From an uncultured virus (IMG/VR IMGVR_UViG_2799112477_000001) (lineage: Duplodnaviria; Heunggongvirae; Uroviricota; Caudoviricetes): a stretch of 64,000 nucleotides of DNA. Under the pieces are notes generated by a model. It did not search any database, was not told the origin of the DNA, and saw nothing but the letters and a program-made list of their open reading frames with translations. Of this stretch, positions 2,056-58,896 are shown in pieces. Position numbers and translations under genes: made by a program. The DNA lies in IMG/VR virus record IMGVR_UViG_2799112477_000001. The stretch is one strand, 5' to 3'. Position 1 is the first letter of the stretch. Every line of letters begins with the position of its first letter.

Positions 2056-2156
2056 CGATTTGACCCTTTGGAACTATGTAATCTCTACTAGGTGTAGATC
2101 TCTTGGTGATGGCTTTTTCTGTGCTGCTTCCCTTTTGAACTATGTAATCTCTACTA

Positions 2157-3359
2157 GTATTGCGTAACATCTAAATGTTTATTATCGGATATAACCTTTT
2201 GAGTTTGACTCGTGCGTCATCAGTTGTGAACTGCCAGTCAACACCACGCTGCTTCTTGTTGCGGTCAACATGCCACGGCTCCAAAAGTGCGTTGAGCGCT
2301 TCCAGATCTGGGATCCTCTGAGAGCCGATGCACTGCCTACCAAGAGCAGAGAGTTCGATCTCGGCAATGTTCAGCCAACTTCCGTGTTTCGGAGTGAAGT
2401 GGATCTCCAGCCTGCTTGCAAGCTCCAGTGCACGCTCCGGCTTGAAAGTCTGGTAGAGTGACGCGATCGTATGAGTGTTGAGATTATCCATAACGAGAAC
2501 GACTTTCTTAGCTGATGGGTACTGAGTATCAAGCAGCCATTCGATCTTTCTTGCCCAGTCCTCTCTGGTGCGATGCTCTTCAGCATATGCGTAGCGCCAG
2601 CCATTGAGAGGTTCGGTGAACAGGAAGATTGATGCAGTTCCGTTACGTATATACTCATAATCCTCGTATTCGGTTCTGCCATTCTTGGAGCGAAAGCCTT
2701 TTCTGGCATTGGCGAATAACTGGATAGGTTTCTCATCCATGCAGACTACAGGATAGTCTTCATCGTATGGTCGGCTGTATACAGTGAGGACATCCTCCAT
2801 CGCTGCAACGAATGCAGCACTATGATCAGGAGGAATGCACCAGCACGCGGGACACTGTCATATGAGACAGTGAATCCACGTAATTAAGCTCAACACATTT
2901 ATCTGCAAGAAGGCGAACGGTCCAACGCTCATAACCTTCAGGAGGTTCGCTGCAGGCAAGAGCGACTATGTGCGCCTCGACATCCCCGGTCACTTTGGCT
3001 GGTACAGGTGGAGTCTCTCTCTTCTTCCTGTAGATCGTTGATTCAAGGCCGTTGTTCACATATGATGCCCTGACGGTCTGAACTGTTGTCGGTGATGTGT
3101 GGTACGCATCGGCGATCTGAGCAACGGTCATCCGCTGCTTGGCGTTGCGATCCGAGGCGAGCAATATGTTTGCTCTCAATATCGTTTTGGCAGATGAACT
3201 GCCCTTTGCAACGATATCCTTAAGAATTTTCCGATCGGCATCGGTCAATTCAATCAAATATTTTACTGATGGCATATGACTATCCTCCCATCTCTTCTAA
3301 GATGAGAATATCATATACCAGAACAACATTTTATACAAGTTTTAGATGTTACAAACTAC
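2157..3359 (-). mobile_element. IS630-family insertion sequence (1203 bp)
   Basis: TA duplication at 2155-2156 and 3360-3361. 19-bp terminal inverted repeats GTATTGCGTAACATCTAAA / revcomp GTAGTTTGTAACATCTAAA (16/19 identical). Two-ORF HTH plus DDE transposase. Confidence 0.95.
2171..3275 (-). pseudogene. IS630 transposase in two ORFs (HTH 2826-3275; DDE 2171-2800), probably defective
   Basis: DDE motifs CMDEKP, VMDNLNTH and SWLNIAEIE. At the ORF junction SRVL runs directly into out-of-frame WCIPP, and the A-rich slippery segment usually found there is absent. Confidence 0.75.
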
Positions 3360-3559
3360 TAGGTGTAGATACGAGAGCCTAAAAATCGTATACATACGAC
3401 CTTTGGAACTATGTAATCTCTACTATGTGTAGATGTGAACTGGAAGAGCAATACCTTATCACTTCCTTTGGAACTATGTAATCTCTACTATGTGTAGATT
3501 TATAGAAAAATGGCAATTGAGCTCGCCGCCGAAAGGCTATAGAGAAAGGGGTTGATACC

Positions 3560-49890: not shown

Positions 49891-50187
49891 TAGTCGCTGT
49901 GGCTGTTCCCTTTGCTTCAGAAAGTTTCGCCGATTAATGGTCGGTTACTTCCGCCGTAGTGCCGTTGCATCATCCCTATCTAGCATCGGGATCGCTCTTC
50001 GAACACTCCGCACAGCGGGCAAGCCTCAAATAAGCGCTAACTTATTCTGCTTCACTCTTTCGTTCACATGTTCGGCTCTCGTCAGAGTTAATGCCTACTG
50101 ATAAGGATCATTCAGTACCAAAGACCGAAGTCCGCACAATATCGCAAACCTACGCCACACCCAACACATCGTCTGTGCCTCGATTGG
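49891..50187 (-). ncRNA. Candidate structured ncRNA, copy 2
   Basis: Homologous to 18942-19196 and embedded in the tRNA-like cluster. Confidence 0.6.
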
Positions 50188-50313
50188 CATCGGATGATGG
50201 AATTTCTGTGTTATATGAGCCGTCACCTACAGGAGTCGAACCTGATTGGTCGCAGTGTCGATCTGCTGTTCACACAGAATTATCACCGTAATATTGGGAT
50301 CCCATCATCCAAC

Positions 50314-50389
50314 TGGAGCTTCGGGCAGGATTCGAACCTGCGCTACCTTCACCTACGGATGGTAGACTTGCCTATTATCTTACCGAAGC
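50314..50389 (-). tRNA. Atypical tRNA (76 nt; loop CGTAGGT would give TAG, but U33 is missing)
   Basis: Acceptor GCTTCGG/CCGAAGC-T-CCA, T arm GCAGG-TTCGAAT-CCTGC, and a mismatched anticodon stem. Confidence 0.6.
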
Positions 50390-50588
50390 ACAATGTTGCA
50401 GCCATCATACAGACTACCATGTCATCTCAAATGTCTAGGATTCGAACCTGACTGTATGTGCGAAGGAATGCGCGCGTTTCGCGACTGCAACTTGTCGTCT
50501 TACCATTTTGGCTTCACTCAACATTGGTAACGCAGGGCCAGACGTACACCGCTGCGACTTAATCCCCCGTTGGCCTTCCGGGTTGAGT

Positions 50589-50667
50589 TGGAGCTTCGGG
50601 TAGGAGTCGAACCTACATACAACTGCGTTTGCATACAGTTTGCTCTGGCCAATTGCGCTACCGAAGC
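50589..50667 (-). tRNA. Atypical tRNA with an expanded (8-10 nt) anticodon loop
   Basis: Acceptor GCTTCGG/CCGAAGC-T-CCA, D arm with TGG, AACTG-TATGCAAACG-CAGTT, and T arm GTAGG-TTCGACT-CCTAC. Confidence 0.65.
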
Positions 50668-50671
50668 ATAT

Positions 50672-50765
50672 TGGTGGAGATGCCCCGATTCGAACGGGGT
50701 GCGGGCTGTCATTAGTCGATTACCGTGAGCCCAGAGCCCGTGCATTGCCATTCTGTCACATCCCC
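50672..50765 (-). tRNA. tRNA-like RNA with alanine identity elements and an aberrant anticodon arm
   Basis: Acceptor GGGGATG/CATCTCC (G3-U70), A73, CCA; T arm CCCCG-TTCGAAT-CGGGG; stem CGGGCT/AGCCCG closes 27 nt. Confidence 0.6.
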
Positions 50766-52115
50766 ATATTGCGACTGCTCCCGCCTTGCAAGTCGCTGTA
50801 CACGCTCTCACCGTTAACGTCTGCTCCTTTCAGTGGTTCGAACAAGTCCGCTTTTGGAAATCCTAAAAATATAGCTGACGCTTCTTTATTGTCGTCTTGT
50901 GTATGCACACCATATGCATACAAGCAAGGCAATCTAAATTAATTTTTCCTTTTGGAGCTTTTTTCTTACACTCATAACAATAACTATTCATCGTCTGCTC
51001 CTTTCATCCATGAGAGACTTGAAAAATTCTTCTACTCTTTTGGACACATCTTTGTCCGTAGTCTCAAAGGTGAGCACATCCATTTTTATCGTTGTACCGT
51101 CTTTTCGTTCAACAGCCTTAACGACCTTGTACCAACTACTCACCGCCTGCTCCTTTCCGCTCAAGGCTCGTCCTTTTCTCCGTCCGAACAGTAATACATA
51201 TCAAGGTTATCATCAACGAATTGTGAAATGTCGTGGTAAATCACGCAGTTTACGCCGAAGAGATTGACCATTGAGGCAACGCTTATTAACAGCACCTTGT
51301 TCTCATCGGTCTGAAAGACTTCTTTTGGAAAAGAGCTATCCTTTTTAATGGCGTCTGTGAGAGCTGCTACGCAGCTCACAACCTTTTCGGTAGGACCATT
51401 CTCGTCTTCCTCATAATTGACGGATGATAGTGTGCTTATGTTCGACACGAGCGAGTTCCAAGCGTCTGCATAAGTTTCATCAGAGGCGGTGCTTAAAAAT
51501 TCACGCATTTCTCGTTCTGTCGCGTCCCTGAAGATAGTTTTAACAGACGAATGTGCCTTCAGAGAGGATTCCAACTCTCTTAATGCTGTGATTAAATCCA
51601 AGTTGTTGCTACCGCAATTAGAACAATAATGCTTGCCGTGAAGTTCAGGCGGCTGCATTCCTTCTATCGCTATCCACTCCATTTGCGGCCTATCAGCAGC
51701 AGGGGCATTCTTGACCACTCCGTATGCTTCCTTTATGCCGCACCATTTCGGATCGTGCAGACCGTTTTCGTCTACTTCGGAGTATTCGTCAAGCAGATCC
51801 GAAAGCTCGAGGAGTATATAGTTCTTACTGGTCAGATCACCGGCTGAGAAATCAAACAGAGCGTTCTGCAGCCGGTCAATGCACTGTTTGTATCCGAGAT
51901 TCTCTTCGCAATACAGGCAGCCGGTTTCGTTGCTTCCAAGCCTACATTCGCCGCATCTACTCATATTTTGTCCTTTCTGCACTTTGTTTTTTCCTTAATT
52001 GGCATGAGCTGAGAGAACTGACGACCGCCACCCAAGTTTTATCGTCGATGGGTTTCTGTGTCATCATATCCTTTCTCCTTGTAGACATATAGCGGCTAAA
52101 CCACTCTCAGCTCAC

Positions 52116-52223
52116 TGGAGGGGACGGACAGCCTCGAACTGTCATCAACCGCCGAGTATGCCTCTCGGCTGTTTATCGGGGAGCATACCTCCTAAAGCAT
52201 TCCGCCAATTATGCTACCGAAGC
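52116..52223 (-). ncRNA. Chimeric tRNA-like element with two hairpins in place of the anticodon arm
   Basis: 5' GCTTCGGTAGCATAATTGGCGGAATGC D arm, T arm GACAG-TTCGAGG-CTGTC and 3' CCA; the acceptor halves do not pair. Confidence 0.45.
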
Positions 52224-52330
52224 GCAATTCAGTTTCACCTGTTTTGACACGTCGTTAACCGAAAAAGGAAGCGCAACCAAGTTTCTCTCTTAATGCTGCA
52301 ACTATGTGCTTGGAAATGATTGCAGCCTGA

Positions 52331-52405
52331 GGCAGGGAGTAGAGGAGTCAAACCTCTGTCTGCGGCCATGGTTCTCGCCGCTCTTCACCGCTAAGCTAAC
52401 TCCCT
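52331..52405 (-). tRNA. Atypical or pseudo tRNA
   Basis: Acceptor AGGGAGT/ACTCCCT, T arm AGAGG-TTTGACT-CCTCT, and an irregular anticodon loop GAGAACCATG. Confidence 0.5.
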
Positions 52406-52413
52406 ATACGTAA

Positions 52414-52454
52414 GTTTGTACTTATATTGTACAATCGGTTTGTACTTATGTCAA
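52414..52454 (-). promoter_or_regulatory. Sigma-A promoter of the tRNA-like cluster with tandem direct repeats
   Basis: TTGACA-17-TACAAT; GTTTGTACTTAT occurs at 52414-52425 and 52438-52449. Confidence 0.8.
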
Positions 52455-52826
52455 GCAATCCATCGGATAGGTTTTGTTAGTGAAAGAAAAGACCGCTTTT
52501 CAGCTGAAAGCTGTCTCTATCAAAGGGTGGTCTAATTTATCTGTACTTGTATGCGTGCAACATATCGGCTAATACCATAACGCTGCTCGCAACGCTCAAC
52601 ATGATTGGTGGCAGTCTTCAGCACGGCTCTCTGGAAGGGCGTGTCTTTGACAGCAAGCTGTCTCTTCGCAGCTTTTTCCATGAGCAGCATCGTGCGCATT
52701 CTGTCGAGGGCATACGCCTCAACAGCAGCTTCATCCAGCCAGTCAGGCTCTTCAGCTTTATACGGATTATATTCCATTTCTGCCATCGCTATGCACCTCC
52801 TTGTCGTAATTATAAAAGAGGGTATT

Positions 52827-53648
52827 TCAATTCGTTTTCCAGCTTGATCCTGTCACATAGTCTATGGATATCCCTGGCTCTACGTTATAGCAGAAAACGT
52901 TGATATGAAACTTCGTTCCTCTGCTCTCTACGTCGCCTGCTTCGATATGTACGCCTCTACAGACCAGCTCGTTGCCTTTGAAGACAGGAGTTGCACGGTA
53001 TAGGATCCTTCCGCCCTTTCTCAGGAGCCAGTTCTGCGTAGCTTTCTCCGCATAGGACAGCTGACCATCGACATTCATATATTCAGTGCCTGTGACAAGG
53101 TTCCTCGGATCATCTGTAATCCCTGAGACCGCATACATTATGAGGTGGCAGCGGTTGTACAGCCATCCGCTGTTTCTGCTGATTAGGTCAGGATATTGCG
53201 CCTGGTTCCAGCCTGAAGGAGTGACATGCGACAAGTCAAAGTCTCTTTCCCCTTCCGGTATCGTGTCTTTTCCAAGTGAAGCTTCACACGCACCGCATCT
53301 GCCGAGCCAGTCGAGCTCGGACAATTCTATATACATAGATTCTGCTTTCTTGTAATCCTCTTCCGTGAATTCCGGTTTGTTCCCGTTCAGGACATAGGTT
53401 GGTGTACCGGAGTATTCAGGGATAGAATCCAGAAGGCTGCTCTTTTCTGTCTGCATTGGAGCGGGTCTGTTTTCTGCCTGTTCAGCAGATTTGTCTATAT
53501 CCTGTATGCTTCCGAACTCACCGGGAGGATCCACTATCACAGAGTGCTGTCGCATCGTATATATGCCCGCACCAATGACTAGCAGCATAATCAGCAGCAT
53601 TCTTACTGTTCTGTATAATTTTTCTTTCTTGCTGTATGGATATTTCAT
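52827..53648 (-). CDS. Membrane-anchored DNA/RNA non-specific endonuclease (DNA-entry nuclease type)
   Basis: N-terminal TM segment, LD.LGRC, PSGWNQ, YNRCHLI, NLVTGT.YMN and YRATPVF.GNELV.RG. Confidence 0.88.
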   Translation of the reverse strand: MKYPYSKKEKLYRTVRMLLIMLLVIGAGIYTMRQHSVIVDPPGEFGSIQDIDKSAEQAENRPAPMQTEKSSLLDSIPEYSGTPTYVLNGNKPEFTEEDYKKAESMYIELSELDWLGRCGACEASLGKDTIPEGERDFDLSHVTPSGWNQAQYPDLISRNSGWLYNRCHLIMYAVSGITDDPRNLVTGTEYMNVDGQLSYAEKATQNWLLRKGGRILYRATPVFKGNELVCRGVHIEAGDVESRGTKFHINVFCYNVEPGISIDYVTGSSWKTN

Positions 53649-53659
53649 CTATTTCTGTT

Positions 53660-53847
53660 CTGTTCGTCCATTTTGCCGCGCAGAATCTACATATTATATA
53701 TAGTAGAGATTTTTGTTTTGAGTCGGTAAATACTTCAGCACCGGCAGACCTTCCCGGAAGTAGAGATTTTGCGACAAGCAACAAGCACAAGTACCTATCT
53801 ACACCATGCGCATATATATGATATCCCTGCGCAGGCAAGTAGAGATT
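53660..53847 (-). CRISPR. Non-canonical Cas12a mini-array with loop-expanded handles
   Basis: AAAATCTCTACT occurs three times on the - strand (core at 53838-53847, 53759-53768, 53702-53711). Two copies are closed by TGTAGAT (GTAGAT at 53797-53802 and 53685-53690). Confidence 0.75.
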
Positions 53848-53881
53848 TTTAGCGGAAGCATGCTCTGCCGCGCTGTCAATG

Positions 53882-56800
53882 TTACTGTTCCTGTATATGC
53901 TGCAGCCAGTCGCTGCTTGATATAGACAGAGATACAGGTTTTGTCGTTTTGTCCCCTGCCCGTGCTGTCAGAGCTTCTTCTGACGCGCTCTTGATTCTAT
54001 TGACTATCATCAGCCCCTTGCGGGCAATGTTGTATGCGCTATTATCGTCCTTTGGCGCTTCGAAGAAGCTTCCCGTGGCCAGATCCATGATTGGTGAAAC
54101 GATATTTGATCCTGTGCGCATCTGTACGATGAGGCCAAAGAGCGCAAGAAGTTCTTCGTGGAAACTCTTATCGGTCATGCTGCACAGAGCTTCTCTGAGG
54201 TCCTCTGAGCTTTCATCGATACCGTGGTCGTTCAGAAGGCCTGTGATCGACTCCGTCAGATTGATAGGCTTATAGTTTATGCCTTTATCTCCTCTGACCG
54301 CACGGATCCGCTCTCCATGTGAGAAAACGCTCCATTTCATCCTGCAGCCATCGAGCTGCTTCAGCCTGTTCTCGCTTATAAAGTAGCTGTAGTCGAAGTC
54401 GAATCTGTACGCCCTGACCTCTTCGTCGTAAACGATCCTGTCAAAGGCGTGCCAGAAGGCTTTGGCTGCGGGGATGTTTGTGTATCTGGTATCAAACAGG
54501 TTCACAAATCCTGTATTCGAATCTATTTCTGTGATCTTCCACGGCGAAACGTAGAAGATAAAACCTGTCTGTTTTCCGATCTTGTCGAAGCTTTCGAACG
54601 GAGCTGTCAGCTGATAAGCTCTGTAGATCCCGCCCGGTTCATCCGGTTCAGCGGATTTGTTTACAAGCAGATTCAGCTTGCTTATAAGGCGTGCTTCAAG
54701 CTGCTGATATACAGCTTTTTCTATCTTCTGGCGCTGCTGTTTGAACCCGAGGCTCATATCCTCGATCGCTATTACTGCGTCGTATTTGAGCATAAGGTCG
54801 GCAAGGATGCGCACGACCTGCCCGATGTAGCCGTCTTTAAGCTGCTTTATGCCCTCTACTGATTCCCAGCTCTTTCTTTCAGCCATACGCTGGAGTTCTC
54901 TGCTTTCAAGGAGCTTCGCATAGTCGGTCTTCTTAGGCTTACTGCCGGAAGCCTGCTCTATGACGTTGAGAGATCTGTTCTCTAAAACATTTCCCTTTGG
55001 GTCAAGGACGCAGAGCTGGATGAGATTGTTTTCTCCCCTGCTCACACCGATGACATGTACGTTGTCTTCCTTCTTTATAGCGAGTCTCGCTTCGGTGTTG
55101 ATAAAGCTGAAATTCGTTGCGGAAGCATTTATGGTGATCGGCACGTTGAGCTGAAATTTGTTTACCGTGAATCTGCGGTCCTTTACGATGTCATACTTAA
55201 GGACCTTGCTCCTCTTCGGATTCAGAGGGTTCTTTGCTGCTACTACATCGCCTGCCCTGTGGATCACGGCATCTTCCGGTTTTATGGATGCCTGTCTGAA
55301 GAAAAGTTCTGCTCCTCCGTTGAGTCTGCAGATCGGGGGCTCCCCGTTTCTAGGATCAAACAGTGCTCTCCAGTAAATAGTTGACAGGTCCGGTTTGCCG
55401 TATGCCTTGTTGCTGAAATCCCTGTGCCAGATTTCGAAGAGATAGAGCTGCCCGTTCTCTACAAGCTCGTTTACGACAGCTGTATCTATCGGTCTGTACT
55501 TTAGCGAATATCCTGCTGTTTCTACTTCACGGAAGAAGCATGAGATATCCTCGTAAGCAGCAGTTTCCGAGAATTTAAAGGAGAACATCTGCCATGCGTC
55601 CGTGACTGCGATACAGTCCTTGTAGAAGTCGATGAGCCTGTGGCAGTCTTCAAGGCTGAAGTCTTTTCCCTTCTTGAAGGTGCCACTCTTGTAAATGCGC
55701 ATGATGTCTTCTGAAGGTTTGTAGTTTTCGATCCCCTTTCTGGAGAAGATAACGTGCGGAAGAGCTTTGTTGGCTCCGGTCAGCAGGTTGTACCTCATCT
55801 TCATATAGACATCGTCCGTTACTGCTTCAGGGACCTTTTTGAACAGGTTGCCCTGCCCTTTTGCAATGATCCCAAGATAGTATTTGCCGTCTTTCAGAAG
55901 CAGCGTTCCGAGCTTTGCGCTTTCAACGCTTTCCGCCCAGCCGTCGAGGAGGAGGGAAGAACCGAAGTTGAGTTTGACCTTTTCAGTCGTATATATCTTG
56001 CCTGAAAGGTAGTTTCTGGTTTTGTTGTAGATGGAAGTAACAGCATTCAGCGCGTCCATCAGCGGCTCATAATCTGTGTAGAATGCGAGATCTTTGTCTC
56101 CCGTCCTGACGGAAAGGTTCTCTGTAGAGCGTCTGATGTTCAGGGCCGCGTCAAGGTATTCCTTTATAACGGCTTTTGCCTTGCTGCTGCTTTTGAGGCT
56201 TCTTGGCTCTGAGCCTCTCATCTGAAGGAATGCGAGGAGGTCTCTTCTTGCCAGATCGAAAGACATCTTGCAGAAGCCTGCCTCGCCCGTTATGTATGTC
56301 GACAGCTTCCCGTCTATTCCCGGAATGATATCCAGTTCTCCGATGCTGTAATACTCTTTCTTTCTCAGCGCTGTGTCTTTCTGCTTACGGTATGCTGCGG
56401 AACGGCGCCTCTTTTCGGTCACATCCTGTTCGAAATCGTATTTATCCCCGAGAAGATCTTTCATCTTACTCCAGGATCCGAGCATCTTATTCGATATGTC
56501 ATTCAGAGCTTTTGTCCTGATGTATATTCCGTTAAGATCGTAGCCTCCTATGGAGCTTATGAGGGCCGTCATGCCTTCCGCTGCAGGCCTGAAGAGCTCA
56601 TCCAGCGCGAGGAGCGCGTCTATTACCTCATCGTCTTCTCTGAACGCTTCAGGGATGAACGAGAGTGTCGTTCTGTCGCTCAGGATCTGCTTTTTCAGAG
56701 GTGTCAGCTTGGGAAGACGGTCTTCTTTGCTTTCAGCTGCCTGATTTGCCAGGTTGATGTATTCGTTCAGGCCTTTTATCTTAGTCCCGTCTTCTTTTGC

Positions 56801-57535
56801 AAAGCCGCCGATAAGCTGGTTGTATCTGTCTATGCCGCTCTGGGCCATTACCTTGCTGAAGCCTTCAACGGAGAAGGAGTCAGACATGCTGTCATCGCCA
56901 AGCAGTGCAGCTAGTTCTTTTTCAGCTGTCTTTATATTGTCCGGGAGAACTTCTGAGATCCTCGTGAATTTCCTGTGGTTATCGAGGAAGATAGGCAGGT
57001 TGTCGTCTATGATCCTGCCGGCGACCGAACCACTCTTTCCGGAAGCGTCATATATGAGCCTCCTGTTATTGTGGTATCCGGTGAAGTAAGATGCGAATCC
57101 TTCAAAGCTGCTTATAGCTGCCATTGCTTCTGCGTCATTCTCATACATAGCAGGAAGAAGCTTGTCGAAGAGATCCGCCTTAAAGAGGTCGTTATAGCCT
57201 TTTGCGCCTGTGAGATCATTTGATATATTCTCAGTCATGCGCCTTGCGAGGTCATTCATTTCCTCTCTGGCCTCATCGCCCTTTTCCGGGTGGAAGTAGA
57301 GATCTGCATATGCGGTAAGATCGCTCCCGAGGGAAAAGCCATTAAGAGTATTTTCTATGTGGGTTTTGTGGAGCCCGTCTATGAGCTTCTGGACTTTCTT
57401 CTTTTCCTCTGCCCGTCTTGTGTCCTCTTCTATGATCCCCCGCTCTTCGATGTATTCGAGGGTCTTCCCCTGCGGGATCAGGCCGAATCTAAGCGTTTTG
57501 CTGATCTTGTAAAGATTTGTGAAATTCTCGTACAT
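53882..57535 (-). CDS. cas12a: Cas12a (Cpf1), predicted nuclease-inactive (RuvC-I D>S)
   Basis: FTNLY..SKTLRF.L.PQGKT, KGLNEYINL, LKKQILSD, YNKTRNYL, LNGGAELFFR, KDRRFT and AYNIARKG. RuvC-I reads IGVSRGENNL. Confidence 0.95.
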   Translation of the reverse strand: MYENFTNLYKISKTLRFGLIPQGKTLEYIEERGIIEEDTRRAEEKKKVQKLIDGLHKTHIENTLNGFSLGSDLTAYADLYFHPEKGDEAREEMNDLARRMTENISNDLTGAKGYNDLFKADLFDKLLPAMYENDAEAMAAISSFEGFASYFTGYHNNRRLIYDASGKSGSVAGRIIDDNLPIFLDNHRKFTRISEVLPDNIKTAEKELAALLGDDSMSDSFSVEGFSKVMAQSGIDRYNQLIGGFAKEDGTKIKGLNEYINLANQAAESKEDRLPKLTPLKKQILSDRTTLSFIPEAFREDDEVIDALLALDELFRPAAEGMTALISSIGGYDLNGIYIRTKALNDISNKMLGSWSKMKDLLGDKYDFEQDVTEKRRRSAAYRKQKDTALRKKEYYSIGELDIIPGIDGKLSTYITGEAGFCKMSFDLARRDLLAFLQMRGSEPRSLKSSSKAKAVIKEYLDAALNIRRSTENLSVRTGDKDLAFYTDYEPLMDALNAVTSIYNKTRNYLSGKIYTTEKVKLNFGSSLLLDGWAESVESAKLGTLLLKDGKYYLGIIAKGQGNLFKKVPEAVTDDVYMKMRYNLLTGANKALPHVIFSRKGIENYKPSEDIMRIYKSGTFKKGKDFSLEDCHRLIDFYKDCIAVTDAWQMFSFKFSETAAYEDISCFFREVETAGYSLKYRPIDTAVVNELVENGQLYLFEIWHRDFSNKAYGKPDLSTIYWRALFDPRNGEPPICRLNGGAELFFRQASIKPEDAVIHRAGDVVAAKNPLNPKRSKVLKYDIVKDRRFTVNKFQLNVPITINASATNFSFINTEARLAIKKEDNVHVIGVSRGENNLIQLCVLDPKGNVLENRSLNVIEQASGSKPKKTDYAKLLESRELQRMAERKSWESVEGIKQLKDGYIGQVVRILADLMLKYDAVIAIEDMSLGFKQQRQKIEKAVYQQLEARLISKLNLLVNKSAEPDEPGGIYRAYQLTAPFESFDKIGKQTGFIFYVSPWKITEIDSNTGFVNLFDTRYTNIPAAKAFWHAFDRIVYDEEVRAYRFDFDYSYFISENRLKQLDGCRMKWSVFSHGERIRAVRGDKGINYKPINLTESITGLLNDHGIDESSEDLREALCSMTDKSFHEELLALFGLIVQMRTGSNIVSPIMDLATGSFFEAPKDDNSAYNIARKGLMIVNRIKSASEEALTARAGDKTTKPVSLSISSSDWLQHIQEQ

Positions 57536-57560
57536 GGTGTGGCTGGTTCCTTTCGCTTAT

Positions 57561-57757
57561 AAAAAAGTGCGGTCCGTCTGTTCCGGGGCTCCGCACTTTT
57601 GTCTGTTTTTATTATTAAACGAAAGGAGCCGGGGGAAATGCCTAAAAATCGGTGACTGCATTTCCTCCGGCTTAACACCATGAACACCATATCACAAAGA
57701 AAGGAATATGGTTCATGTTTCAATGAGTATTATAGCAGTAGATAACGCAGATTGCCA
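57561..57757 (-). promoter_or_regulatory. cas12a promoter and structured leader ending in a terminator hairpin
   Basis: TGGCAA-17-TATAAT (57729-57757), two hairpins, then AAAAGTGCGG..CCGCACTTTTTT ending 25 nt before the ATG. Confidence 0.65.
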
Positions 57758-57798
57758 CTTCTTTTTTGTGACGGTGCTGTTGCACTTAAGGTGATTGT

Positions 57799-58254
57799 TT
57801 AATGGCTCGGATGATAGTAGCCGAGCTCGATTGCAATGAAGTAGATCGCCCTCTTTCTGTATTTACTGAGCGTTCGCGGCGTAATCTCCAGATTTTCGCG
57901 CGAATATCCATAGACAAGGTTGTTTGTAAGGACATCTTTCAGTTTTTTGCCGGTGCGATTGTCTCTGCATGTCCTTGCTGCCTTGTATATGCCTTCGTGA
58001 ATCGCTTTGATCTGCGCCTCTGCTGCTCTCTGTTCCCGCTGTTTATCTACGTGAGCTATAGCGATATTCTCTGTCTTTCTGGAGATGCTGTTTGTAGGTG
58101 AGACCGCTATTCCTCCGTACTGAGGGACCAGACCGTCCATATAGTCGTCGAGAGACCACGGAAGCTGCTCCGCTTTCTTCTCAAGCGAGGCATAGTTCTT
58201 CAGCAGATCCATAACCTTTTGCACTATATCTTTCGGCAGATGATAAGTCGTCAT
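57799..58254 (-). CDS. ArpU/RinA-like transcriptional regulator
   Basis: L.NY..L, TE.IAI and a C-terminal HTH (ITPRTLSKYRKRAIY.IA.ELG). Confidence 0.55.
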   Translation of the reverse strand: MTTYHLPKDIVQKVMDLLKNYASLEKKAEQLPWSLDDYMDGLVPQYGGIAVSPTNSISRKTENIAIAHVDKQREQRAAEAQIKAIHEGIYKAARTCRDNRTGKKLKDVLTNNLVYGYSRENLEITPRTLSKYRKRAIYFIAIELGYYHPSH

Positions 58255-58544
58255 CAGAGGTCCTCTTCCTCGACTATTTCGAACTCTTCAGCGTTATCGA
58301 TCTTGACACGCCTGATGAAATCTTCAGGGTAAGGTGTCCCGGTCAGAATGTAGGCGACCTGCGCGATCTGACTCAGGCGGAGCTTGCTGGGATCACGCAG
58401 AAATATCCCCACATAATGTGGGTTTACGTGCATCGCTTCAGCAAGGGCCTTCTTTGTAACCCCTGCGTCGAACATCGCGTCTTTGACCTTCTCAACATCC
58501 AGTTCAAGATCGTATTCCTGATTGGCAAGGCTGTTAATTCCCAT
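58254..58544 (-). CDS. HTH protein
   Basis: GVTKKALAEAMHVNPHYV; overlaps the next start codon. Confidence 0.55.
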   Translation of the reverse strand: MGINSLANQEYDLELDVEKVKDAMFDAGVTKKALAEAMHVNPHYVGIFLRDPSKLRLSQIAQVAYILTGTPYPEDFIRRVKIDNAEEFEIVEEEDL

Positions 58545-58896
58545 GTTCGCCCTCTTTTCTGCTTTAGCTTGAAAATATATTTCACTCTTTAGTCGATTGT
58601 AGCATATAGAATGCACCGAATGCAACAGTATGTGACACGGAAGTGATATCAGCTTGACCTAATATTGCAACCGCCGAGGCGGGGAATGTTAAATTCATAG
58701 GTGTTGATTATAATTAAGATTATGAGGAAGGCGTAGATGAGTTGGAATGACTTCTGTTGGTGACAGACAGGCGGTATCGGTTAACATAAAGCAAGAGAGC
58801 CATTTCTGGCTCTCCTTTGCTATTCTTATTCATTTGATGCCGGGATCACTTCCGCTGTAAAAGTCGCTCAGATGGCGAAATTTCAGCGTTTTATTG

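Follow-up and report, generated by a model that had tools for sequence, protein, structure and literature searches.

A mini-array of shortened type V-A repeat units directly behind cas12a in an uncultured virus record: possible fixed guides of a Cas12a without adaptation genes

Background

Canonical arrays of type V-A CRISPR-Cas systems are made of repeats of 35-36 nucleotides (nt), spaced by 59-73 nt, in which the handle stem UCUAC/GUAGA, with a U following UCUAC, is closed by a loop of 4-8 nt. Here we present an analysis of a small array of such handles located directly behind the cas12a gene in a 64,000-nt stretch of DNA from an uncultured virus (Caudoviricetes; IMG/VR record IMGVR_UViG_2799112477_000001), the whole of which is called the window. 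This mini-array shares with canonical arrays the stem and its following U, the orientation directly downstream of cas12a and the loss of one repeat-plus-spacer unit between strains. It differs from them in a repeat of about 21 nt, in a spacing of 47, 57 and 79 nt, in loops of 12 and 36 nt and in that adaptation genes were not found.

Repeat-derived RNAs outside normal arrays have been described before. CreR-type RNAs have been shown for V-A, where they match the cas12a promoter beside a TTTA protospacer adjacent motif (PAM) (bioRxiv 10.1101/2023.03.10.532045), and about half of V-A loci contain repeat-like units (bioRxiv 10.1101/2023.03.03.530964). CreR and standalone V-A units resemble the units of the window in being degenerate and repeat-derived, in lying outside the normal array, in sharing the mature handle and in being thought to load the cognate Cas12a. 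Theirs, however, are placed mostly upstream of cas12a and keep an unaltered handle of 19-20 nt, whereas those of the window stand behind the gene and two have expanded loops. In contrast to CreR, no window guide was found to pair with the promoter of cas12a next to a TTTV PAM, and in comparison with the cognate repeat the arms are identical but the loops have 12 and 36 nt instead of 5. The accessible portions of the V-A standalone-unit, CreR and Cracr literature make no mention of enlarged loops or of handle-only tandem units.

The region was brought to attention by an initial annotation, made by a model from the letters alone, which described a hidden mini-array of Cas12a handles with hairpin-expanded loops. 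We tentatively interpret it as a set of fixed guides resembling CRISPR RNAs (crRNAs) of an adaptation-less Cas12a, of which units 1 and 3 would still be processed and loaded.

Results

Three units were found behind cas12a, and they were compared with L010 and L011, two metagenome loci that encode a 98% identical Cas12a. All lie on the minus strand:

53882..57535, minus strand: cas12a open reading frame, 1217 amino acids (aa), stop codon at 53882-53884
53850..53881, minus strand: gap of 32 nt between the cas12a stop and unit 1, with 1 substitution against L010
53797..53849, minus strand: unit 1, AAAATCTCTACT and a 36-nt loop between TCTAC and GTAGA, ending in GTAGAT; identical in L010 and L011
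53771..53796, minus strand: guide-like stretch of 26 nt after unit 1 (AGGTAC...GTCGC)
53759..53770, minus strand: unit 2, the 5' arm alone (AAAATCTCTACT), loop and 3' arm missing
53685..53714, minus strand: unit 3, AAAAATCTCTACT and a 12-nt A/T loop, then GTAGAT
53662..53684, minus strand: guide-like stretch after unit 3, reaching into the 5' region of the following gene, whose ATG is at 53648
52827..53648, minus strand: downstream gene with a DNA/RNA non-specific endonuclease domain (PF13930, E 2.9e-14), 95.5% nucleotide identity to L010

The annotated strings are thus present behind cas12a, and far beyond chance: the window holds 7 copies of the exact 10-mer AATCTCTACT, where 100 shuffles average 0.25 and never exceed 2, and 2 of the split pattern AATCTCTACTN{6,36}GTAGAT, where the shuffle mean is 0.00. 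The core of unit 1 is AATCTCTACT followed by 35 nt and GTAGAT (53797-53847); that of unit 3 is AATCTCTACT-ATATATAATAT-GTAGAT (53685-53711), with TCTGCGCGG... coming next; the AATCTCTACT copy of unit 2 occupies 53759-53768 and has no GTAGAT behind it. The TCTAC/GTAGA stem is kept in units 1 and 3, which with the extra unit of L010 can form the UCUAC/GUAGA handle hairpin, but not in unit 2, which is without the 3' arm. Unit starts are 79 and 57 nt apart in the window and 79, 47 and 57 nt apart in L010, and the repeat is cut to about 20-21 nt, so that the regular spacing of approximately 36-nt direct repeats typical of a V-A array is not seen. The description as a cas12a-linked mini-array that repeat finders would miss, with the handle part alone kept, was borne out.

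Between the cas12a stop and unit 1 (53850..53881, minus strand) no promoter-like or terminator-like site was scored; TTGACA at 53870-53875 was considered as an array promoter and rejected, no -10 having been scored. No terminator-like site was found on the minus strand between the array and the nuclease gene either, and an Rfam search of 50000-58800 returned tRNAs alone.

The origin of the units could be traced within the window, which also holds a canonical array:

2065..3499, plus strand: canonical V-A array, four repeats of 35-36 nt, spacers of about 28-31 nt, repeat CCTTTGGAACTATGTAATCTCTACTATGTGTAGAT
about 2158-3356: insertion sequence (IS) splitting canonical repeat 2 in its loop, with DDE_3 and HTH_32 genes

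The repeats of this array account for the other four window copies of AATCTCTACT, and since it is the canonical repeat CCTTTGGAACTATGTAATCTCTACTATGTGTAGAT that carries them, the units behind cas12a correspond to its last approximately 20 nt. Judged by sequence, they are worn-down repeat ends with changed loops; comparison with CCTTTGGAACTATGTAATCTCTACTATGTGTAGAT confirmed the earlier claim that the repeat has lost its 5' half. Traces of the lost part persist: in L010, CATTTGGAA precedes unit 2 and equals the canonical CCTTTGGAA minus CTATGT.

Throughout the 2.5-Mb genome, AATCTCTACT has 12 copies, 10 of them on contig C42. The remaining two, on C2 and C41, were judged to be chance occurrences with no 3' arm nearby. 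Outside the window, C42 carries three more handle units, in loci L092 (unit A) and L093 (units B and C):

C42:91975-92014, plus strand: unit A, 25-nt loop, between a TnpB-like gene and a topoisomerase gene
C42:161755-161775, minus strand: unit B, 6-nt loop
C42:161674-161702, minus strand: unit C, 14-nt loop

Here also remnants of the canonical repeat are visible, AAC-ATGT in unit A and CTAYG-TAAT in unit B. The arm AATCTCTACT does not vary among the seven aligned sequences (six non-canonical units and one canonical repeat), and unit 2 has it as well; GTAGAT is kept in 6/7 non-canonical units, the exception being unit 2; and the T following TCTAC is retained in every unit. We equate this T with the U that, in the AsCas12a and FnCas12a structures, forms a tertiary pair within the handle pseudoknot. 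Flanks and loops differ among all aligned units. A derived AAAA prefix is common to five units with different guides, at two loci 15 kb apart. The IS, for its part, entered canonical repeat 2 at CTAG in the loop, the same place as the inserts of the other units.

Upstream of the B-C pair lies a promoter-like TTGTCA-17-TAAGAT, and behind it a hairpin with U7 (-27 kcal/mol, z -3.7, 0/200 shuffles as good). The pair has the appearance of a small gene, with promoter-like site and strong terminator, beside a serine recombinase gene; L010 is without this two-unit gene and without the adjoining type I restriction genes. Viral Cracr RNAs consist of a handle, a short guide and a terminator, sometimes as stacked arrays, on mobile elements (bioRxiv 10.1101/2024.10.29.618823), and C42:161674-161775 has exactly this layout. 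Cracrs nevertheless target host cas promoters (arrays I-C, I-E and I-F), whereas here Cas12a is encoded alongside and no match to a cas promoter was seen.

Comparison with the close relative shows a common block (58889-52827 of the window) of two regulator genes, cas12a, the array and the nuclease gene, beyond which the flanks differ. Between the unit 1 guide and unit 2, L010 and L011 have an extra unit with the normal loop TGATT and 26 nt behind it; this gives two repeat-plus-spacer intervals of 47 nt, and exactly that 47-nt unit is absent from the window. The substitutions against L010 are distributed as follows:

cas12a 3' end: 15 in 719 nt
gap from cas12a stop to unit 1: 1 in 32 nt
array, 53662-53849: 0 in 188 nt
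nuclease gene: 37 in 822 nt

For cas12a the proportion of synonymous differences (pS) was 0.032 and the ratio of the nonsynonymous proportion to it (pN/pS) 0.29, a pattern of substitutions by which this gene is under purifying selection. At the synonymous rate about 6 substitutions would be expected in the array versus 0 observed (Poisson P ~0.0025).

These figures bear on the main rival explanation, namely that the array is an inert relic decaying after the loss of adaptation, the inserts, deleted 5' halves and broken unit 2 being neutral damage of a recent, indel-type decay that leaves the arms intact. We regard it as rather unlikely, although it must be taken seriously. Against it stand the unchanged 188 nt between two flanking genes that both diverge by 2-4.5%, the pN/pS of cas12a, the full length that its subclade maintains across 50% divergence (see below), the AAAA-prefixed units with different guides at two distant loci, and the promoter-like site and strong terminator hairpin owned by the B-C pair.

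Descent and linkage also speak to the second function offered in the initial annotation, crRNA mimics that act as RNA anti-CRISPRs, soaking up Cas12a into useless complexes. Such Racrs are known as solitary repeat mimics on phages and plasmids (PMC10651486), and mobile-element genes abound in the DNA around the window units (integrases, TnpB, topoisomerase, PcfJ, serine recombinase). The units are, however, neither solitary nor on an element attacked by the Cas protein they would bind: they lie in cis, 32 nt behind cas12a and inherited with it in one block, keep a guide-length spacing (the 47-nt register of the relative) and derive from the locus's own repeat. The decoy explanation fits poorly and is very improbable.

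Unit 2 proved to be something other than a handle with a hairpin-expanded loop, and that assignment was rejected. What had been taken for its insert is a copy of rpoC coding sequence:

53728..53761, minus strand: rpoC-like segment found by BLAST, 34 nt, codons N-F-R-E-G-L-S-V-L-E-Y-F

Counted after the 5' arm, the segment has 31 nt, the size of canonical spacers. When the array was compared by BLAST with 400 other genomes of the family, 53728-53761 was matched in 6/400, in frame in every case read; the best match was in a genome of another genus (G132; 30/34, E 1e-5 per genome), to a gene identified as rpoC because it carries Rpb1 domains 3-5. The genome's own rpoC matches at 26/34 positions, and the bases preceding the matching rpoC site are not TTTV. 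The CCGG/CCGG fold-back ascribed to unit 2 lies within this segment. On the simplest reading of the sequence, unit 2 would be a repeat deprived of loop and 3' arm whose remainder is joined to an rpoC-like spacer, one no longer fit for loading; the segment may be a disarmed chromosome-matching spacer.

Of the other inserts said to fold back, that of unit 1 does so strongly and that of unit 3 weakly. Unit 1 is predicted to fold into the 5-base-pair (bp) handle stem with a coaxially stacked inner hairpin (-17.4 kcal/mol, z -3.16, 2/200 shuffles as good), and unit A into the same architecture (-12.8 kcal/mol, z -1.97). Side by side, both inserts show, by our reading, a common design in which a 3-bp stem (GCC/GGU versus GUC/GAU) is followed by a bulged U and a UGCGC helix; one insert has C-G and the other U-A as the central pair of that stem, which makes one compensatory pair. 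The fold of unit 3 has A-U pairs only in its loop (-4.2 kcal/mol, z -1.98), and the loop of unit C has no internal pairs. Tolerance of an enlarged loop is known only from an engineered case: ErCas12a crRNAs with 5-nt, 10-nt and MS2 extensions of the solvent-accessible stem-loop keep activity, although lower than wild type (PMC11031708). Those RNAs are synthetic; units 1, 3, A and C look like their natural counterparts.

The 1217-aa protein itself is a full Cas12a, with five of five Cpf1 Pfam domains, the REC1, REC2, PI, RuvC and Nuc architecture, and a match to the TIGR04330 equivalog at 1093 bits. It has the residues H759, K768 and K785, the His/Lys/Lys set which, following work on LbCas12a and FnCas12a, we take to be the pre-crRNA RNase of the WED domain. 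Position 759 is His in the window protein and in 9/10 other members of its subclade, and Arg in L010 (L010:12275-12277), L011 and P0002. The RuvC site departs from the Asp-Glu-Asp triad:

55040..55042, minus strand: codon of Ser832, in place of the first RuvC catalytic Asp, motif IGVSRGEN versus IGIDRGER

In phmmer alignments with the Protein Data Bank (PDB) chains 8qwd_A and 6nm9_B, 'vigvsrge' falls on 'iigidrge' and 'vigidrge', and the site reads Ser832-Glu925-Asp1163. Ser-Glu-Asp is present in 11/11 subclade members (P0001-P0011, 50-98% identity), with Glu925 and Asp1163 kept. Among 235 Cas12a homologues with a length of 600 aa or more, a set biased toward relatives of the window protein and including three short proteins that gave artefacts, 193 have Asp-Glu-Asp and in about 34 the first position is S, N, T, H, K or A; among the fetched loci the non-Asp proteins are those of L010/L011 (Ser), L053 (Lys) and L057/L058 (Asn). 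Our literature search found no account of V-A proteins with the first RuvC Asp replaced, which is not proof that they are unpublished.

RuvC Asp mutants of Cas12a include D917A in FnCas12a and D908A in AsCas12a. With Ser in place of this Asp, the complex may therefore bind rather than cut DNA, a loss of cleavage that would follow by analogy with those mutants. Binding-only type V effectors include Cas12k, Cas12c and TldR. Another, Cas12m, shares with the window protein an altered RuvC site, the lack of an adaptation module and possibly action through DNA binding (PMC11013384), but the latter differs in being a full Cas12a equivalog with the first Asp alone replaced. As to adaptation, Cas1, Cas2 and Cas4 (PF01867, PF09827, PF01930) had no match in the genome, which is 85.6% complete. 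In that sense the earlier claim of fixed, non-adaptive guides is supported.

We then scanned 82 related loci for loops, 79 of them after L010, L011 and L053 had been set aside. In these 79 no real loop exceeds 8 nt, nor does any in the 77 other loci counted at 42% identity or less; a long-loop match in L090 was spurious, lying on the opposite strand inside an array. Elsewhere, approximately 1390 handle-to-handle intervals measure 59-73 nt, the one outlier, of 43 nt, being in L053. In the 54 loci that have three or more clustered units, loops of mixed length within one array are found solely in L010/L011 (Ser) and L053 (Lys), whose Cas12a is without the RuvC-I Asp; flags for L032 and L052 were artefacts of the regular expression. 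In L053 (13809-14959) a distance of 126 nt separates the gene from the array behind it, whose loops measure 4, 5, 7 and 8 nt; the 43-nt interval contains a truncated repeat.

Two loci with an Asn-variant Cas12a (38-39% identity; L057:3685-3860 and L058:6238-6410) carry one handle-only unit, AAATATCTAC-TTTC-GTAGAT, 52 nt past the stop, followed by a terminator hairpin (-21.1 kcal/mol, z -5.8). The neighbourhood includes TnpB and DUF3849 genes, and no adaptation genes were found within 8.6 kb. An array directly behind the gene is also seen in at least ten Asp-type loci, and therefore adjacency alone is not special.

Closer relatives of the Cas12a were not found by a single-protein scan of genome contigs or in viral contigs; an alignment scan gave two, both distant, and searches of family and order genomes gave none above 43% identity. 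The handle pattern occurs in 400 genomes of the same family as 8 single matches versus 9 for the reversed control, i.e. at chance level, and a 21-mer of unit B in one genome (G179) was set aside for having no adjoining 5' arm. In viral contigs the pattern marks 34 loci, most of them in coding DNA; two (L117:2001-2100 and L135:2001-2140) are a 40-nt tandem repeat of 3-5 copies with identical 'spacers' and a handle-like hairpin AAT(C/A)TCTACTTTATGTAGAT, which may be a decoy array or a coincidence.

The initial annotation also proposed a search of the guides against host and mobile-element promoters; searches of the own genome, of phage and plasmid records and of viral contigs gave no significant match. 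The 26-nt stretch after unit 1 has no counterpart in any of these. Against phage and plasmid records, the guides of the mini-array and of the B-C pair and the canonical spacers gave E of at least 3 or no match, and viral contigs, searched by exact 20-mers, contained no guide or canonical spacer. The canonical spacers, which served as controls, thus likewise had no target in any of these searches. In C42:80000-162836, 9 sites have at least 10 of 12 leading matches against approximately 3.9 expected, none with more than 13/20 and none at the cas12a leader. A 14/16 match of guide C beside TTTA at C28:5316 was discarded as lying inside a coding region and within chance.

These searches weigh on another alternative, that the units are regulatory or cis-acting, either as CreR-type RNAs steering Cas12a to a promoter or as Cas12a RNase sites in a cas12a-array-nuclease transcript that set the fate of both mRNAs. 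CreR-type RNAs and repeat-like units are known for V-A, the stretch from cas12a through the array to the nuclease gene is free of minus-strand promoter-like and terminator-like sites, and the 'guide' of unit 3 extends into the region where the nuclease gene starts. On the other hand, no PAM-flanked match of at least 10 leading guide bases exists in the genome, the cas12a leader included, and the V-A CreR genes in the accessible reports lie upstream of cas12a, not behind it. We hold this alternative to be unlikely.

RNA-library contigs (two runs of one sample and one run of unknown kind) include portions of cas12a and the nuclease gene; none spans 53635-53968, and contigs of this type cannot show absence.

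Of the remaining neighbours, the regulator genes of the common block are of phage type:

57799..58625, minus strand: two small regulator genes upstream of cas12a (phrog_36, phrog_248, phrog_1373)

They have a weak match to ArpU (E 6.7e-4, below the cut-off) and are inherited in the block with cas12a. The cas12a leader (57557-57758, minus strand) has a promoter-like GTGGCA-18-TATAAT (with TG) and a strong hairpin with U6 (-16.7 kcal/mol, z -4.7) ending about 20 nt before the start codon; this hairpin resembles an attenuator or, alternatively, a terminator belonging to the genes upstream. Four tRNA-like genes lie at 50314-50765 and 52331-52405 (minus strand); ARAGORN left two of them unassigned, one read with a four-base anticodon, and one tRNA-Gln has 94 nt.

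Discussion

If the mini-array is indeed a set of fixed guides, its history and working could be pictured as follows. A remnant of a V-A array would have stayed attached to a solo cas12a once the adaptation genes were lost, and without Cas1-Cas2 the full 36-nt repeat would no longer be kept intact or homogeneous. What remained unchanged would be what Cas12a needs, namely the 5' arm AAUCUCUAC, the following U and the 3' arm GUAGAU, while the 5' half was deleted or drifted and the loop, solvent-facing in solved Cas12a complexes, took up inserts of 7 to about 30 nt. The units would be co-transcribed with cas12a, and Cas12a, through H759, K768 and K785, would cut 5' of the intact handles, those of units 1 and 3 and one more in the relatives. 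Each handle would be retained, the 23-26 nt that follow serving as its fixed guide, and the inner hairpins of the long loops would hold both arms together and protrude from the protein. Unit 2 would be a dead unit that cannot be loaded.

Several observations weigh against this interpretation. L010 and L011 are 99.996% identical and count as a single comparator for the conservation. Although broken, unit 2 is unchanged to the same degree as the rest of the array. Intact arms need not mean selection, as the 5' halves may have been lost by deletion and not by drift. The RNase residue His759 is replaced by Arg in the 98% relative and in P0002, the covariation between loops amounts to a single pair, loops of more than 8 nt are missing from the 77 other loci at 42% identity or less, and no target was found for any guide in the own genome, in phage and plasmid records or in viral contigs. 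Together with the missing 3' arm of unit 2, the splitting of the canonical array by the IS and the clean nature of the 5' deletions as opposed to point drift, the lack of targets, the Arg and the lack of long loops elsewhere are what an inert relic would predict.

A bolder extension of the fixed-guide interpretation would see in the Ser-RuvC Cas12a lineage an adaptation-free, fixed-guide DNA-binding system on a mobile element, with handle-only guide genes scattered and protruding loop hairpins selected to dock a partner or set the loading order. We consider this speculative and improbable.

Conclusions

Should the array be only a relic, its value would be modest, that of a worked example of the decay of an orphaned V-A array. 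Loading of units 1 and 3 would make them, to our knowledge, the first natural handles of a Cas12a with loops of 12-36 nt, and the locus a natural minimal array akin to engineered multiplexing arrays. The locus shows which bases of the repeat survive without adaptation and in effect maps Cas12a's own requirements. In addition, the conserved Ser (11/11), with Asn, Thr, His and Lys in other branches, points to Cas12a proteins that may bind, not cut, DNA.

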